Shown: positions 23,774-59,254 of the stretch, in pieces
Layout of the letters: each line of letters opens with the position of its first letter
Numbering within the stretch: position 1 is the first letter of the stretch
Assembly (NCBI GenBank): GCA_963662795.1
Contig: OY759746.1
Span: 224,001-288,000 of the forward strand
Source of the DNA: Spirochaetia bacterium
Lineage (GTDB): Bacteria; Spirochaetota; Spirochaetia; CADAEX01
DNA length: 64,000 nt
Direction of reading: 5' to 3'
Notes under the pieces: model-generated
The model's database searches: none
Seen by the model: the letters and a program-made list of their open reading frames with translations, nothing else
Told to the model about the DNA's origin: nothing
Program-made: the position numbers and the translations under genes

Positions 23774-24322
23774 ATGGAAATCAAACTTTTTGACAAATGG
23801 TGGCTGCAGCTGCTGAAAGGGATTTTTTTCGTTACAGGCGGAATACTTATCCTGAATCTGGGTCCTTATAAATATCTGATAAACCCCCTTTTTGCCGGAA
23901 TATTTCTTATGGTTTTCGGTATTCTTGATATTTTTACGTCACTTTCCAACCGCACCCTGAATTACGCATGGCAATGGCTCCTTGCAGAGGGGCTTCAATA
24001 CCTCTTCTTCGGCCTTATTCTTATGATGAAACAGGATATTACCTTTTCCATTATTCAGCTTCTTTTTGGAATTCTTGCGATGTTCACCGGCATACTCCAC
24101 TTTTCAGCGTCCATAAACTTCAGAAACGCCGGTGTCAGAAGATGGTTTGCCGCAACTTTTAACGGCCTTGTAGCAGCCGCTTTAAGCATTGTCATCATTT
24201 TCTATCCGGAAAGCGAGCAGAATATCAGTGCAATTATAATCGCAGCTTACATAATTGCTGAAGGAGTTCTTGTAATGCTTAACGCGCTTCTCCTCGAACA
24301 GGTGGCATTTGATTATTCCTGA
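23774..24322 (+). CDS. HdeD/DUF308 family membrane protein
   Basis: KWWLQLLKGIF..GGILIL, six TM segments; TATAAT 7 nt upstream of ATG (likely leaderless). Confidence 0.78.
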   Translation: MEIKLFDKWWLQLLKGIFFVTGGILILNLGPYKYLINPLFAGIFLMVFGILDIFTSLSNRTLNYAWQWLLAEGLQYLFFGLILMMKQDITFSIIQLLFGILAMFTGILHFSASINFRNAGVRRWFAATFNGLVAAALSIVIIFYPESEQNISAIIIAAYIIAEGVLVMLNALLLEQVAFDYS

Positions 24323-25538
24323 AACCAGAGGCACAATCCCCTCTTCTTCCATAAAAAAATCAGCAATCCCTTTTTTTACGGCAGTTCTTCTGGCTTTCCT
24401 GCCTGAACTGTTTTTAACACCGGTTTGTTCCTTTTCAGAGTCCTTTTCAGAGTCCTTTTCAGAGTCCTTTGCAGAGTCTTTTACCGCTCCTGCTTCTGAC
24501 GGCAATCATTACCTTAAGGAATTCTCTTCCCCTGCAGATGAATGGGGAAACGGAGTAGAGGCCGTAATCGAGGAAGCCTACAGGGCATGTTTTAAAACAT
24601 ACATTATAGACGGGCGGGTGATCACAGTCCGCATGCCGTTTGCAGAGAATAATGAAAGGGCACAGCTTATCGACGGGGAACTGATCGTAAACGGCGGAGG
24701 CAAGGCAGATGCAGAACAGCTGTGGATTGAAGCTGATGAACTGCTGAAATCTGAAGATTTCAAGTCATACGCTGCAGTTCTTGGAGACGGACGCGAAAAA
24801 CTGATTACCCTTGATCTTGATTCACGAAGCTGGTCTGTTTCCAGGGATTTGTTCTCTGTCGCCAGGATGAAAGCGGACGCATATCCCGGCCTTCCTCATC
24901 AGCCTTTGATCTACTCAGACGGAAAAGGCATAAGGGAATCAGATGTCTACAACTACCTCTACTGTATGGGGCGGCTCGGGATGGACTGTTCAGGTTTTGT
25001 CTGGCAGGTGCTTTCGACTGTAGCAAAGCGCAGCCGCATCAATCTTGCCAGAGCGCTCACCCCATCGCTTCACGCACCGGGGCCTTCATATGCGCCGCTT
25101 TATTTCGGAACATGGTACTTCAGGACAAGAAAGAGGGAAGCGCCCGATGTTCCTGACATAATAAAAAACCTTAAGCCTCTTGATCTTATCCTTTTCCGGG
25201 GAGAAAAAGGTGAAATAGTACATTCCACCGTTATCCAGTCGATAGACAGAAAAGCCGGTATCATACGCTACCTGCAGAGTACAGATGAGGCTCCAATGAA
25301 TGAAAGAGGTGTCCATGAATCATTTATCCATTTCAATCCTGAAAATGATAATGTGAGCCTCAAAAACCCTTCCCTCATCTGGACACAGAAAAGGCTGCCT
25401 CCCTTCGATGGGGAACGCCCTTCGTCATTTACAGATGACGGTGACCGTTACCGTGCGTTTAGTGAATATGGAGGGGGAAAAGTAGTAAGGATCAAAGCGC
25501 TGTCAGGCCAGTTGAAATTTACTGATATAAAAAAATAA
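24309..25538 (+). CDS. Secreted NlpC/P60-like (putative peptidoglycan) cysteine peptidase
   Basis: GMDCSGFVWQV catalytic-Cys motif; LKPLDLILF..IVHSTV histidine motif; hydrophobic N-terminus. Confidence 0.65.
   Translation: MIIPETRGTIPSSSIKKSAIPFFTAVLLAFLPELFLTPVCSFSESFSESFSESFAESFTAPASDGNHYLKEFSSPADEWGNGVEAVIEEAYRACFKTYIIDGRVITVRMPFAENNERAQLIDGELIVNGGGKADAEQLWIEADELLKSEDFKSYAAVLGDGREKLITLDLDSRSWSVSRDLFSVARMKADAYPGLPHQPLIYSDGKGIRESDVYNYLYCMGRLGMDCSGFVWQVLSTVAKRSRINLARALTPSLHAPGPSYAPLYFGTWYFRTRKREAPDVPDIIKNLKPLDLILFRGEKGEIVHSTVIQSIDRKAGIIRYLQSTDEAPMNERGVHESFIHFNPENDNVSLKNPSLIWTQKRLPPFDGERPSSFTDDGDRYRAFSEYGGGKVVRIKALSGQLKFTDIKK
24429..24483 (+). repeat. In-frame 12-bp tandem repeat (TCCTTTTCAGAG x4.5)
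   Basis: Three exact copies, then TCCTTTGCAGAG and a partial copy; encodes SFSE-SFSE-SFSE-SFAE-SFT. Confidence 0.92.
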
Positions 25539-44155: not shown

Positions 44156-44821
44156 TCATATATGTCTGCAACACTTATTATTAAACACTTCCTGTGAACT
44201 ATGCTGCCAATCCTGCTGAAGTAAAACATCCTCTCCCCGTTTGTATAAACAAGAGAATCCACCATTTACTGGATCGGGAATTCTAGGTAACCTTGACAGT
44301 GGAGTGAATGAATAGTGTGCAAGGGCGACTTTAATCGCTATCCAGTGAGAAACCACAAATATGTTCTTATTTTTATTATCAGCAAATATGATCTCCAACT
44401 CTTCTACCATCCGATTCTGCAGTTCCTGAAATGTGTCAGCTCCGGGAAGATTGAATAAATCGGGGCTCTCCCAAAAAGATATGTATTCATCAGGATGAGA
44501 AATCGCTGTTTCCTCTCGTGTCTTACCTTCCCATGGTCCAAGATTTATTTCTCTGAGATTGTCTTTAACAGCAGCTTTAATTTTCCTGTCCTGCAGGATT
44601 ATTTCCGCCGTGTCCCTTGCTCTTTTTAACGGACTTACATATGCAAGGTCGACCGGAAACTGTTCAAGAGATTTTTTTACCTCATAGGCTTGTTTAATCC
44701 CTAAAGCGGTTAACGGAGAATTTTTATTACCCTGCAGTCTGTTCTGTTTATTCCATTCAGTCTCGCCATGCCGCACGAGGAATATTTTTGTTTCCACAGG
44801 CATTGCTACGCAGTCTAACAT
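44156..44821 (-). CDS. Histidine phosphatase family protein (PGM/CobC-like)
   Basis: LVRHGETEWN, SPLKRA, LREINLGPWEG, VVSH; alternative start 44803. Confidence 0.92.
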   Translation of the reverse strand: MLDCVAMPVETKIFLVRHGETEWNKQNRLQGNKNSPLTALGIKQAYEVKKSLEQFPVDLAYVSPLKRARDTAEIILQDRKIKAAVKDNLREINLGPWEGKTREETAISHPDEYISFWESPDLFNLPGADTFQELQNRMVEELEIIFADNKNKNIFVVSHWIAIKVALAHYSFTPLSRLPRIPDPVNGGFSCLYKRGEDVLLQQDWQHSSQEVFNNKCCRHI

Positions 44822-44865
44822 ATTATACTTCCCTGTTTATTAATATTATAAATGATACTCATCAA

Positions 44866-47763: not shown

Positions 47764-47796
47764 TAAAAAAGCCCCCATCAGGGTTGATGGGGGACT
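47764..47796 (-). terminator. Rho-independent terminator
   Basis: Minus strand AGTCCCCCATCA-ACCC-TGATGGGGGCT followed by a T-run. Confidence 0.85.
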
Positions 47797-47904
47797 TAAT
47801 TGCTGTGTATTTTCATCCCGCAAACGGGAACACCATGAACTCGCAGCCTATCGGCTTCCATGCCTCCTCTGCTGTCCCCGTTTACGTGGGTTTTTTCCTC
47901 CATG
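47797..47904 (-). ncRNA. Candidate GGA-rich structured sRNA (CsrB/RsmZ-like), unvalidated
   Basis: Six GGA motifs in 86 nt, including the hairpin GGC-AUGGAA-GCC; bracketed by two terminators. Confidence 0.35.
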
Positions 47905-47945
47905 AAAAAAAAACCTGGAATGCCCGTAACGGGATAGCCAGGTTT
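47905..47945 (-). terminator. Probable rrn operon terminator
   Basis: Minus strand AACCTGG..CCCG-TTA-CGGG..CCAGGTT followed by a long T-run, about 70 nt after the 5S. Confidence 0.7.
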
Positions 47946-48011
47946 ACATTTCTTTTCAAGTAAAATATTCAGCACAGTCATTCAAATCAGCAGTGTAAAT
48001 AAATAAAAAAA

Positions 48012-48123
<112 letters not shown>

Positions 48124-55866: not shown

Positions 55867-57609
55867 CTATATCAGTTCCTTCGCCGCTATTTTGTTCCCG
55901 ATAAATGATACAGCCTCATCAAGGGGCAGCCCGTTCATCTGCTCTCCCGTCCTTAACCTTATCGAAACAGCGTTATTCTCAGCCTCTTTTTCTCCGCAGA
56001 TAATCATGTACGGAACTTTATCATTCTGGGCGTTTCGTATTTTAGCGTTCATCCTCTGGTCACTCAGGTCGGATTCAACCCTTATCATTTTAGCTTTCAG
56101 CGCTTTTTCAACCTTTTTGGCATAATCATCAAAGGCTGGAGCGACAGGTATTGTAACTGCCTGTACAGGGGACAGCCATACTGGAAAAGCGCCTGCATAG
56201 TTCTCTATAAGAACGCCGAAAAACCTTTCAAGAGATCCTAAAAGCGCCCTGTGAACCATATAAGGCCTTTTTTCTTTGCCGTCAGCGTCTACATAAGTCA
56301 TGTTAAACCTGTCCGAAAGGTTGAAATCAAACTGGATTGTCGTCATCTGCCATTCGCGGCCTATCGCGTCCCTTATTTTAAGGTCAATCTTGGGCCCGTA
56401 GAAAGCTCCGCCGCCCTCATCCACTTCATACTCAAGTCCTTCGGCTATTACCGCTTTTTTAAGCGACTCGGTCGCCTTGTCCCATCTTTCCTGGTCCCCG
56501 ACGCTCTTCTCAGGCCTTGTTGATAGATAGGCTTTTATCTCTGTAAACCCGAAAGCTTTCCATATACTGAGTGAAAACCTCAGAACCTCAAGAATCTCAT
56601 CCTCTATTTGCTCAGGCGTGCAGAATATATGGGCATCATCCTGTGTAAAGCCCCGCACCCTCATGAGGCCGTGAAGTACGCCTGATTTTTCGTATCTGTA
56701 GACCGTTCCAAGCTCCGCCCATCTGCATGGCAGTTCCCTGTAGGACCTTTTTTTATTGTTGTAGATCAGGATGTGGAAAGGACAGTTCATCGGCTTGGAA
56801 TAATAGTCCGCGTTATCCATCTGCATCGGCGGATACATCCCGTCGCTGTAAAAATCAAGGTGCCCTGAAGTCTCCCAGAGCCAGGATTTACCGACATGGG
56901 GTGTAAACAGCATCTCATATCCGTTTTTGATATGCTCGCTTCTCCAGAAATCCTCTATTGCCATCCTTATACGGGCTCCCTTCGGGTGCCAGTAAACAAG
57001 TCCGGGACCTGCCTCTTCGTGCAGGGAAAAGAGGTCAAGCTCTTTGCCGAGTTTCCTGTGGTCGCGCTTTTCCATCTCCTCAAGGTGCTGGAGATGAAGG
57101 CGCAGATCCTTCGGGTTTGTCCAGGCGGTCGCGTAGATCCTCTGAAGCATGGGCCTTTTTTCATCACCTCTCCAGTAAGCTCCTGCTACAGACAGGAGCT
57201 TGAACGACTGGGGATTGAGCTTTGATGTGTTTTCCACATGAGGGCCTCGGCAGAGATCTGTAAATATTCCCTGGGTATATGTTGATATCTCCACATCTTC
57301 GGGAAGGTCTTTGATAAGTTCGATTTTATAGTCCTGCCCTTCAAACATCTTAAGTGCTTCTTCCCTGGTAACAACTTTCTTAACAAAATCAGACTTTCCC
57401 GCAATAATTTTCTTCATCCGCTCTTCAATCTCTTCAAGATCTTCCGGTTTGAGCGGCCTGGGCAGGTCAAAATCATAGTAAAAACCGTTTTCTATAGCAG
57501 GGCCGATAGCTATTTTAGCTTCCGGAAACATCTGCAGAACAGCTTCCGCCATTACATGAGACATCGAGTGCCTGATTCTTTCAATCTGTTCAACTTTTTC
57601 TTCAGCCAT
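55867..57609 (-). CDS. thrS: Threonine--tRNA ligase (lacks N-terminal TGS/N1 domain)
   Basis: RHSMSH, DLCRGPH, RDHRKLG, KPMNCPFH, RVRGFTQDDAH, GAFYGPKID, HRALLGSLERF. Confidence 0.98.
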   Translation of the reverse strand: MAEEKVEQIERIRHSMSHVMAEAVLQMFPEAKIAIGPAIENGFYYDFDLPRPLKPEDLEEIEERMKKIIAGKSDFVKKVVTREEALKMFEGQDYKIELIKDLPEDVEISTYTQGIFTDLCRGPHVENTSKLNPQSFKLLSVAGAYWRGDEKRPMLQRIYATAWTNPKDLRLHLQHLEEMEKRDHRKLGKELDLFSLHEEAGPGLVYWHPKGARIRMAIEDFWRSEHIKNGYEMLFTPHVGKSWLWETSGHLDFYSDGMYPPMQMDNADYYSKPMNCPFHILIYNNKKRSYRELPCRWAELGTVYRYEKSGVLHGLMRVRGFTQDDAHIFCTPEQIEDEILEVLRFSLSIWKAFGFTEIKAYLSTRPEKSVGDQERWDKATESLKKAVIAEGLEYEVDEGGGAFYGPKIDLKIRDAIGREWQMTTIQFDFNLSDRFNMTYVDADGKEKRPYMVHRALLGSLERFFGVLIENYAGAFPVWLSPVQAVTIPVAPAFDDYAKKVEKALKAKMIRVESDLSDQRMNAKIRNAQNDKVPYMIICGEKEAENNAVSIRLRTGEQMNGLPLDEAVSFIGNKIAAKELI

Positions 57610-57687
57610 TTATTTCCTCCATATAGTCTGACCTTTTCATAGTGAGGATGATTGAGTATTTTAAGGCTGTTGTCCCCGTCCACGGGG

Positions 57688-57803
57688 GTATTTACATCCA
57701 TGTAACTCAGCCTTCCGGCGTCCATGCCTCGGCTGAGTATTTACATCCCTGTAACTCAGCCTTCCGGCGTCCATGCCTCGGCTGAGTATTTACATCCCTG
57801 TAA
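57688..57803. repeat. 49-bp tandem repeat (2.4 copies) of nested hairpins in the thrS 5' leader
   Basis: Unit GTATTTACATCC(A/C)TGTAACTCAGCCTTCCGGCGTCCATGCCTCGGCTGA at 57688, 57737 and partially at 57786. Confidence 0.93.
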
Positions 57804-58160
57804 ATAAAAAAAGCCTTGCATGCCAATCATCCAAACACAACTGCATTAAGCCAAAGCTTAAACAATTGTAAGGACGATAAACATCAAGACTTTGAATGTT
57901 TCCGCGGTTCCACCTTACTTCAGCATCAAATGCTGCGCTCGAGGTGCCTTTTTAACGGGGGCAAAACCGGCCAAATCTACTCAGCTTTCATTTTAAACCA
58001 TCAGGTTAGGTAAAAAGCTTTTCGGATGGCAGCTCGGGAGTGGTTTTCATCTGCACTTGTGCCGGAAATCTTCCAGCCAGCCGTATTTCATTAAGTCTTA
58101 CGGATCGGATTCCCTCTCTCTTGACACAGCGGCGCAGTTACTTTTCTCCGTCAATGCTGT
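57804..58160 (-). ncRNA. T-box riboswitch (Thr, specifier ACC) upstream of thrS
   Basis: Stem I GA motif/AGAGA box/GGCTGGAA; specifier GAAA-ACC-A (58042-58044); AGTA and CCGTTA stem II motifs; T-box AAGGTGGAACCGCG (57903-57916); antiterminator partner CGTCCTT; U7 tract at 57806-57812. Confidence 0.9.
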
Positions 58161-58167
58161 TAGGTAA

Positions 58168-58196
58168 AAAATATTACTGTTGAAATTAAAAGTCAA
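58168..58196 (-). promoter_or_regulatory. thrS promoter (TTGACT-17-TATTTT)
   Basis: Sigma70-like spacing directly upstream of T-box stem I. Confidence 0.55.
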
Positions 58197-58267
58197 GAGT
58201 CACCATTAAAAATTGCAATTCTTATTTTTAATTATTTTAACTTCTATATTTAAATACAAATAAATAA

Positions 58268-59254
58268 TTAAAATTCTAAAATTGTTTCATCAATAATTTT
58301 TTCTGTTATATTCACCATTTCCTTTTTGCATACTTTTATAATTACATCTCTGTAATCAACATTCTTTTCCAAAGATTTTTTCTTGATTATTGGTAAAAAA
58401 CTGGAGTGAAGACCTGAATAACCACAAACAATTTCATCAGTTGAAAATCTATTTTTCTCCGAAAGCATTGGGAAAATTACTTCATCGTTTAATGCAGAAA
58501 GGATTTTATAATCAAAATTATTAGTATATCCATATCTTTTTAATAACAGAGTTAATATTTCTGTTGGAGCATTTCCAGAACTTCTACCCAGACCTCCAAC
58601 ACTTGCATCAATTTCCTCAGCCCCGCATTGTACAGCTGTTATAGCATTTATTACTGCTAATTGCATGTTATTATGGGCATGAAAACCTATTGGTATATCT
58701 GTATTCATGTTTGCGTTTATAATATACTCTTTTACCATCTCCGGGATAAAACTTCCAGCAGAATCCATAAGTGTAATTAAATCAATTGGCCACTTAGACA
58801 TGTTTTCAATAATTATACAAAATTCTTTTAAATTAACTGCATATGATTTCATAAGACATACATTCACCCATAATCCTAGTGATTTTGCATATTGCACTGT
58901 TTCAATTATTTGTAAATATTCAGTAATATTTGTTCCAATGCGGATAAATTTCATGCCTTTTGAATATGCCTTTTTAATATCTTCATCTGTACCGTATTTT
59001 TTTAAAAAGAAGAAACCATATTTTGATTTATGTAATGTTTCTTTAGCAATACTCAAATATTGATCATCTGTAAGTGCTGCAGCTTTTTGTAAATTACGAC
59101 TTGCACCCAATCCAAAACCATGCCCCATATCTATCCATTCAATACCAGCTCTTTCTAAATCACTTAGTATTCTTCTTGTCTTAATTTCATCAAATTGAAA
59201 ATCAATAGCATTACTACCATCTCTGAGAGTGCAATCTATTAATTGAAGTCTCAT
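58268..59254 (-). CDS. 4-hydroxy-2-oxovalerate aldolase-like DRE-TIM metallolyase (DmpG/MhpE-like)
   Basis: DCTLRDGS, GHGFGLGAS, MDSAG, GFHAHNN, GGLGRSSGNAPTE, GYSGLHSSFL. Confidence 0.8.
   Translation of the reverse strand: MRLQLIDCTLRDGSNAIDFQFDEIKTRRILSDLERAGIEWIDMGHGFGLGASRNLQKAAALTDDQYLSIAKETLHKSKYGFFFLKKYGTDEDIKKAYSKGMKFIRIGTNITEYLQIIETVQYAKSLGLWVNVCLMKSYAVNLKEFCIIIENMSKWPIDLITLMDSAGSFIPEMVKEYIINANMNTDIPIGFHAHNNMQLAVINAITAVQCGAEEIDASVGGLGRSSGNAPTEILTLLLKRYGYTNNFDYKILSALNDEVIFPMLSEKNRFSTDEIVCGYSGLHSSFLPIIKKKSLEKNVDYRDVIIKVCKKEMVNITEKIIDETILEF

Follow-up and report, generated by a model that had tools for sequence, protein, structure and literature searches.

A tandem array of GGA-loop hairpins between a threonine T-box and thrS in a spirochaete, with possible CsrA-type sites

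We examined 64,000 nucleotides (nt) of contig OY759746.1 from a Spirochaetia bacterium (GenBank assembly GCA_963662795.1, positions 224,001 to 288,000), which we will call the window. Its minus strand carries thrS, the gene for threonyl-tRNA synthetase, behind a T-box leader. Between the terminator of the T-box and the Shine-Dalgarno (SD) sequence of thrS lies a tandem array of short hairpins with GGA in their loops (Table 1). A first interpretation, made from the letters alone (the sequence-only reading), had proposed that these hairpins could be sites for CsrA, either as a sponge that is released by amino acid starvation or as a translational lock on thrS.

The product of thrS has the domain content of a threonyl-tRNA synthetase, and its relatives in a protein search are named threonine--tRNA ligase and come from Spirochaetales, with a top non-self match that is 86% identical. 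The search contains relatives at 78-86% identity, and the proteins from Marispirochaeta and Spirochaeta isovalerica are ~74% identical. This ThrS and its relatives are 577-591 amino acids long and lack an N-terminal TGS domain in Pfam. The short type is also present in loci from Chloroflexi, Kiritimatiellia, and Acidobacteria. The start codon of thrS is at 57,609; the ~65 nt between hairpin C and the gene end in AUAUGGAGGAAAUAAAUG.

The leader is an ordinary threonine-specific transcriptional T-box, as the sequence-only reading had it. In a scan of 1 kb by E-value, it matched the Rfam model RF00230 over its full length (positions 1-219; 78.4 bits, E = 4.2e-17). This is below the gathering score of 93, and the T-box is absent from an Rfam scan at the gathering threshold. 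In the Rfam alignment, UGAAAACCACUCCC aligns to the specifier region, where it supplies an ACC (Thr) codon, and AAGGUGGAACCGCGG aligns to the T-box/antiterminator region. The terminator folds to -47.1 kcal/mol (z = -5.57; none of 200 shuffles folded as well). The antiterminator uses the 5' arm of the terminator, AUCGUCC, as its own 3' strand. The leader has a specifier that matches the gene, the conserved T-box sequence with a UGGN bulge, and an antiterminator and a terminator that are mutually exclusive. Because a transcriptional terminator of this kind lies ahead of the array, the array should be transcribed only on read-through; the sharing of AUCGUCC supports this part of the sequence-only reading as well. 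There is also a promoter-like site upstream of the T-box. Such sites are no more numerous in the region than in shuffled sequence, and the position of this one is no more than consistent with a promoter.

Table 1. Features of the thrS leader and of the related element in the 5S rRNA trailer (positions in the window)
Feature	Position	Strand	Remarks
thrS	55867..57609	-	580 aa; tRNA-synt_2b, HGTP_anticodon, and tRNA_SAD domains (Pfam)
Promoter-like site TTGACT-17-TATTTT	58168..58196	-	directly upstream of T-box; 9/12 consensus positions
T-box leader	57867..58163	-	RF00230; stem I, ACC specifier, T-box sequence GGUGGAACCGCG, antiterminator
T-box terminator hairpin	57806..57893	-	ends in GGC + U7; U tract 57,812-57,806
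Hairpin X1	57787..57806	-	UAUUUAC-AGGGAU-GUAAAUA; -5.6 kcal/mol, z = -5.2; contains UACAGGGAUGU
Hairpin Y1	57754..57787	-	outer stem ACUCAGCC/GGCUGAGU; inner GGC-AUGGAC-GCC; internal loops GA + GGAA
Hairpin X2	57741..57754	-	UUAC-AGGGAU-GUAA
Hairpin Y2	57705..57738	-	identical to Y1; 34-mer matches both places with 0 mismatches
Hairpin X3	57692..57705	-	UUAC-AUGGAU-GUAA; sole inter-copy difference, G to U in loop
Hairpin C	57674..57688	-	CCCC(C)G-UGGA-CGGGG, then ACAACAGCC; alone no better than shuffles, z = -0.46
Rest of 5' UTR	57610..57673	-	UAAAAUACUCA (resembles X-Y junction), CAUCCUC, SD sequence
SD sequence AUGGAGGA	57,622-57,615	-	contains GGA, as any GGAGG SD sequence does
Diverged module paralogue	47826..47915	-	order X'-C'-Y'-X''; in 5S rRNA trailer
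Terminator-like hairpin T2	47905..47945	-	AAACCUGG...CCAGGUU + U run; directly before X'; from sequence and fold
Terminator T3	47766..47793	-	CCCCCAUCAACCCUGAUGGGGG + U6; closes trailer element; strong

Between the U tract and the SD sequence, six hairpins follow each other in the order X-Y-X-Y-X-C. All six hairpins that the sequence-only reading had drawn are present, in the order it gave and on the strand it gave, as is the GGA that it placed over the SD sequence. Its 49-bp unit is confirmed too: Tandem Repeats Finder reports a repeat at 57,688-57,803 with a period of 49 (2.4 copies, 98% matches, score 225), and a second repeat search agrees. The copies run head to tail. The 5' arm of X1 begins on the last U of the terminator's U tract, and each GGC-AUGGAC-GCC hairpin is enclosed by an 8-bp outer stem that the earlier interpretation had overlooked.

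The 216-nt 5' untranslated region (UTR) folds much more stably than its shuffles do (-72.7 kcal/mol vs. -51.9 +/- 4.1; z = -5.05; none of 200 was as good). When folded separately, single modules fold as drawn, and Y1 together with X2 reaches -20.9 kcal/mol (z = -4.2). Closer to the gene, CAUCCUC (57,644-57,650) is complementary both to the SD sequence and to the GGAUG of the X loops. Likewise, GGCUGA at the start codon of thrS has complements in ACAGCC (57,664-57,669) and in the UCAGCC arms of Y.

The motif in the X loops is rare. UACAGGGAUGU, a match to TACARGGATGT, is found twice in the window, both times in the array, against 0.03 expected from 100 shuffles, so the earlier claim that a core of this type occurs twice stands. 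This is the core of ligands that were selected for CsrA binding by SELEX. The shorter pattern CANGGANG has five sites in the array (57,800, 57,775, 57,751, 57,726, and 57,702), which are 24-25 nt apart and fit within 105 nt. They form the only cluster in the window with at least three sites per 141 nt. Of 100 dinucleotide shuffles, 57 peaked at 1 site per 141 nt, 42 at 2, and one at 3; none came to 5. In the 7,675 nt of intergenic sequence there are nine sites, five in the array and two in the paralogue described below. Similarly, ACANGGANGT occurs 8 times vs. 1.15 expected, and three of the eight are in the array. These counts are inflated by the tandem duplication: the independent module types are X and Y, which have a C-G-closed ANGGAN hexaloop, and C, which has GUGGAC. 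The nine GGA motifs that the sequence-only reading emphasized are there (in 141 nt), but this density is not exceptional, as discussed below. Overall, the repeat and the SELEX-type motif exceed what chance would give, and the raw GGA density does not.

Other matches to this kind of motif lie elsewhere in the window. Five of the eight occurrences of ACANGGANGU (1.15 expected) are outside the array, including one inside the 5S rRNA. ACAGGGAAGU (44,827-44,836, minus strand), which matches ACANGGANGU, overlaps the SD sequence of a histidine-phosphatase-family gene (44,156-44,821). GGCRTCCATGCC with up to two mismatches is found 7 times vs. 5.8 expected, which is the chance level; its match with one mismatch, at 47,853, is part of the paralogue.

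How well do the hairpins fit what is known of CsrA ligands? As described in the cited part of PMC7652899, the SELEX consensus is RUACARGGAUGU, with ACA and GGA invariant; the ligands mostly have a hexaloop with AC paired to GU and stems of at most 4 contiguous bp; and CsrA dimers bridge sites that are 10-63 nt apart. Short hairpins that expose ANGGA are given as the preferred target in a passage of PMC7366521. In spirochaetes, according to the section of PMC8668096 that concerns us, the CsrA of Leptospira binds a GGA hexaloop, and changing GGA to AAA abolishes binding; the flgN-flgK-flgL-fliW-csrA locus is reported there to be syntenic with Borrelia and Treponema.

X2 and X3 (UUAC-ANGGAU-GUAA) reproduce the SELEX architecture exactly, and X1 does so with a longer stem. 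X matches the core of the SELEX ligand at 11 of 11 positions and presents it in the same way, as a hexaloop of the form ACA...GGA...GU with AC and GU paired on a stem of ~4 bp. This is the resemblance to CsrA ligands that had been claimed. All three X hairpins are of the SELEX type; Y is closed by C-G but lacks the ACA/GU flanks. The spacing of neighbouring sites falls inside the range that dimers can bridge. As far as can be judged from sequence, the hairpins look like very good CsrA ligands, and binding of the array by CsrA is biochemically plausible.

The modules are not confined to thrS. About 10 kb from the array, a second small cluster of CANGGANG (47,764-48,002) turned out to mark a diverged paralogue. 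When we compared the array to the whole window, the paralogue gave an alignment of 39 nt at 79% identity (E = 3.5e-5) and an adjacent one of 28 nt at 82% (E = 0.008). Its gapped local score is 90.6, vs. 36.5 +/- 6.2 for 200 shuffles, whose maximum was 56.6. A covariance model that was built from Y and X (R1) gives it 55.4 bits, and the next best hit in the window has 15.5 bits. We did not find a third copy of the modules in the window with blastn, nhmmer, or the covariance model with its filters off. Since there is a diverged paralogue in an rRNA trailer, the modules are a repeat family, not an invention of the thrS leader. Both loci are intergenic and on the minus strand, in the transcribed orientation, and both consist of imperfect palindromes in mosaic order.

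The paralogue sits in the trailer of the rRNA operon between the terminator-like hairpin T2 and the terminator T3, and the next gene's promoter-like site follows T3. X' draws its 5' arm from the U run of the terminator before it, which parallels the situation at thrS. X' keeps a GGA hexaloop (AUGGAG) and has one double change in its stem, from A-U to U-A. Y' keeps GGC-AUGGAA-GCC.

The segment 47,766-47,915 (minus strand) is ~150 nt long, has ~7 GGA motifs, and folds to -68.3 kcal/mol (z = -5.8). By analogy to RrA, RrB, and RrF of E. coli, which are similarly placed, it is a candidate read-through small RNA (sRNA). It has no match in Rfam (best 19.3 bits, E = 0.035). It includes a frame of 33 codons from ATG to stop, without a visible SD sequence. 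Between the 3' end of the 5S rRNA with its trailer (TGCCAGGCTTTTTTTATTTA, 48,000-48,014) and the end of the T-box terminator (TGCAAGGCTTTTTTTATTTA, 57,806-57,822), 19 of 20 positions are the same. Low-complexity sequence may produce this by chance, or the match may belong to the shared element.

For comparison, we used 80 listed thrS loci, mostly from other phyla, whose ThrS is at most 71% identical to this one. A T-box motif lies upstream of this type of ThrS in 10 of the 80: two Rectinema-type and eight Chloroflexi-type loci. The Rectinema-type locus L028 was confirmed (45.5 bits, E = 1e-8), and L004 had none. In most of the 10 loci, the start codon comes within a few tens of nt after the terminator. 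That eight Chloroflexi-type loci with the short ThrS have a T-box as well hints that the gene and the leader may have moved together. In spirochaetes, T-boxes precede thrS in this window and in two Rectinema-type assemblies (L028, 9,534-9,831; L002, ~1-200), and all three score below the Rfam gathering cut-off. The part of a 2008 survey that we cite lists T-boxes in none of six spirochaete genomes (PMC2494555).

A few other searches can be reported briefly. The array had no match in a plasmid collection (blastn). A stop-to-stop frame of 42 residues that runs through the array had one match among 1.84 billion representative proteins, to an unrelated repeat protein of 1,239 amino acids, which is uninformative. 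We dropped the idea of a leader peptide, as the array is not crossed by any frame that has a plausible start. The thrS operator of E. coli mimics the anticodon arm of tRNA-Thr; we dropped mimicry of this kind as no loop reads U-NGU-A. Elsewhere in the window, a 12-nt tandem repeat (TCCTTTTCAGAG, 4.6 copies, 93% matches) at 24,429-24,491 lies inside an open reading frame (ORF; 24,309-25,538) without a Pfam match.

The thrS leader is a real and unusual 5' UTR. Given what we observed (the sequence, the repeat, the T-box, the predicted folds, the match to the motif, and the paralogue), we tentatively favour the view that the most likely activity of the array is to bind a CsrA-type protein, although we rate this as a good possibility and short of probable. 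The array would be a young tandem amplification, with a period of 49 nt, of an element made of hairpin modules. The modules form a small repeat family, and each of its two visible copies directly follows an intrinsic terminator on the transcribed strand. If tRNA-Thr is charged, transcription would stop at the U7 tract and the array would not be made. On read-through, six hairpins would form independently in the UTR of ~200 nt. In five of them a C-G pair closes an ANGGAN hexaloop, and dimers of a CsrA-type protein could bind across neighbouring loops. Read-through transcripts of thrS would then be a platform for CsrA, so that the translation or stability of thrS would be affected, or some CsrA would be held. 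Our working hypothesis is that the organism has CsrA, that CsrA binds the hairpins, and that the binding has a consequence. Under the same hypothesis, the leader would be a regulator with two inputs, the T-box and CsrA. In the titles and starts of abstracts that we searched, and in one further passage, we saw no coupling of a T-box or of thrS to CsrA. The interpretation in the sequence-only reading is partly supported.

Several observations weigh against CsrA binding. The motif match was noticed post hoc, by a reader who was seeking anything unusual. At least nine GGA motifs are found in 293 of the 63,860 minus-strand windows of 141 nt, with a maximum of 12, and these are mostly in coding sequence; if GGA is counted permissively, in hairpins of any kind with at least 3 bp, the array is not unique in the window either. 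Bridging to the GGA near the SD sequence would be marginal, since this GGA is ~60 nt away from hairpin C and ~80 nt away from X3. With the nearest GGA hairpin at the edge of the range, a translational lock is not clearly favoured over other readings. We scanned 47 ORFs of the window and found no CsrA or FliW domain (Pfam) in them. No CsrB/Rsm family of Rfam matches 57,400-58,400 at E up to 10; the only hits there are the T-box, CRISPR-DR40 (E = 1.6), and Ocean-VII (E = 7.7). The array is inside an mRNA leader, not a stand-alone sponge gene with its own promoter and terminator. The modules were found in none of the 80 distant thrS loci, whether by pattern, nhmmer, blastn, or covariance model R1 (best E = 0.83). 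In most of the 10 comparison loci with a T-box, the start codon is 92-140 nt past the motif, without a comparable insert.

The main alternative sees the array as a structured repeat that is neutral or selfish, similar to repetitive extragenic palindromic (REP) sequences, bacterial interspersed mosaic elements (BIME), or miniature inverted-repeat transposable elements (MITE), that landed or persisted behind terminators and whose GGA loops are incidental. We take this to be a serious possibility, nearly as likely as CsrA binding, because the copies are identical, the stems are Watson-Crick and fold on the opposite strand, and selection on GGA is not apparent. The copy at thrS would have grown by slippage between the 18-nt direct repeats of X into a variable number tandem repeat that the 5' UTR merely tolerates. 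One base in X3 is all that separates the full repeats, and X1 and X2, like Y1 and Y2, agree base for base; at so young an age, most of the array cannot show selection. From this, the array's size is evolutionarily young, and the number of sites a recent accident, not a conserved design. The complementary strand forms an equally stable fold (-72.4 kcal/mol, z = -5.97) and all of the stems are Watson-Crick, so structure alone cannot separate a function in RNA from a palindrome at the DNA level. The repeat unit is G+C-richer than the window (41%). The different module order of the paralogue, and the absence of the modules from the distant loci, also fit this alternative. In the paralogue, GGA has been lost from the C' loop (GUAAAC), the internal loop of Y' (GAUA), and X'' (AUGGUG); this is about what neutral decay at ~80% identity would be expected to produce, with no sign of selection on GGA in the comparison. 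The sequence-only reading had itself cautioned that such palindromes occur as REP-like repeats. The paralogue bears this out in part, but there are just two loci in 64 kb, both in the transcribed orientation, and the other ACATCCMTGT sites (14,763, 29,206, and 42,777) were rejected as copies of the array: they are in ORFs and have no wider similarity. Nor is there another dispersed family of small repeats in the window, or a transposase-like ORF among those scanned. What a neutral repeat would leave as a coincidence is an exact match to the SELEX core together with a second module that has a C-G-closed AUGGAN hexaloop, which is improbable by chance.

We consider two other explanations to be minor. 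It is unlikely that the array acts in cis as RNA without CsrA, with stem-loops that protect the transcript from 5'-end-dependent decay, guide its processing, or tune initiation. The UTR does fold strongly, and the thrS leader of Bacillus subtilis is processed, but processing sites cannot be inferred from sequence alone. For initiation, the GGAUG-type loops and the UCAGCC arms would compete with the pairings of CAUCCUC with the SD sequence and of the start codon. In the minimum-energy fold, CAUCCUC (57,650-57,644) does pair with the SD sequence and ACAGCC with GGCUG at the start codon, and the same CAUCC is complementary to the X loops. But the SD hairpin, with UCCUC paired to GAGGA (-11.5 kcal/mol), does not stand out from shuffles (z = -1.1; 27 of 200 were as good, which is not significant), and the ANGGA hexaloops in both types of modules would be left unexplained. 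It is far less probable still that the palindromes are operators in DNA, with TATTTACATCCCTGTAAATA and its shorter copies 49 bp apart bound by a dimeric protein. X1 does have 8-bp arms in a palindrome of 20 bp, and the spacing of the sites is regular. However, downstream of the promoter and also of the attenuator, where these sites lie, an operator would find little to control. Also, the internal copies keep arms of only 4-5 bp, the arm sequence of X' is different (U/A runs), and there is no regulator gene nearby.

If CsrA does bind, then this leader would be a natural 5' UTR with two inputs, in which a riboswitch-type attenuator determines if transcription reaches a platform for protein binding at all. 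In this way, tRNA charging would be linked to a global post-transcriptional regulator. To our knowledge, the only antagonist of CsrA that is established in the spirochaete phylum is a protein, FliW; spirochaetes would gain an RNA antagonist or co-target of CsrA beside it. A broader proposal, which is speculative and which we think improbable as a whole, is that this free-living spirochaete has a family of read-through-dependent RNAs that titrate CsrA and are built from shared GGA-hexaloop modules. Only uncharged tRNA-Thr would release the copy at thrS, and the output of the trailer copy would scale with rRNA transcription. The availability of CsrA would depend both on amino acid starvation and on growth rate and would act in turn on the FliW-CsrA-flagellin circuit and motility, and thrS would be controlled both by tRNA charging and by CsrA. 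If the array is only a repeat, then an essential gene under T-box control tolerates 150 nt of inserted hairpins, and leaders can receive CsrA-type sites ready-made from repeat elements.

Among known systems, the thrS leader resembles the multi-site CsrA leaders of E. coli glgC and pgaA and of Campylobacter jejuni flaA. Those leaders also have several GGA hairpin loops in the 5' UTR and a GGA that overlaps the SD sequence, with spacing in the range that dimers can bridge. In contrast, the sites here are behind a T-box terminator and appear only in read-through transcripts, they are in a near-identical tandem repeat instead of having diverged, their binding by CsrA is predicted, and the gene encodes an aminoacyl-tRNA synthetase, not a flagellar or carbon-storage function. 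The flaA mRNA is of interest because, in the account given in part of PMC4894983, it is a CsrA target and a CsrA sponge at once, in an organism of the FliW type. As in CsrB/CsrC and RsmX/Y/Z, short hairpins that expose ANGGA are arrayed, and X matches the CsrB-like SELEX ligand. Unlike those sRNAs, the array is not an independent gene, and it matches no Rfam family of their kind at E up to 10. It has 5-6 sites, vs. the ~18 that are cited for CsrB in a passage of PMC8144298.

REP, BIME, and MITE-like repeats are extragenic, G+C-rich imperfect palindromes that are modular, vary in their order, and form local tandem arrays. The copies at thrS and in the trailer are likewise extragenic palindromic modules in different orders, with a local tandem array. 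They differ in that two loci are seen in 64 kb, in one orientation, and that no transposase, of the REP-associated tyrosine transposase (RAYT) type or otherwise, was seen among the scanned ORFs of the window. Canonical T-box leaders of thrS, as in Firmicutes and Chloroflexi, have the same succession of specifier, T-box sequence, and antiterminator/terminator ahead of the aminoacyl-tRNA synthetase gene. What sets the leader in this spirochaete apart is the structured repeat of ~200 nt between the U tract and the start codon.

The paralogue has a close parallel, by position, in RrA, RrB, and RrF of E. coli, which are members of the tRNA-linked repeats. These sRNAs come from an rRNA trailer, between two terminators, and bind CsrA in vitro, according to the part of PMC8144298 that describes them. 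The paralogue, too, is downstream of 5S rRNA and between two terminators, and it is GGA-rich, as RrB is. In both cases a family of repeats is tied to stable RNAs or to terminators. Similarity in sequence is not expected, and the hallmark of the E. coli RNAs, a copy of 18-19 nt from the 3' end of the upstream rRNA, is not seen in the trailer here. If the trailer element and the array at thrS do bind CsrA, then the echo of RrA, RrB, and RrF suggests that CsrA-binding RNAs behind leaky terminators are a recurring design.

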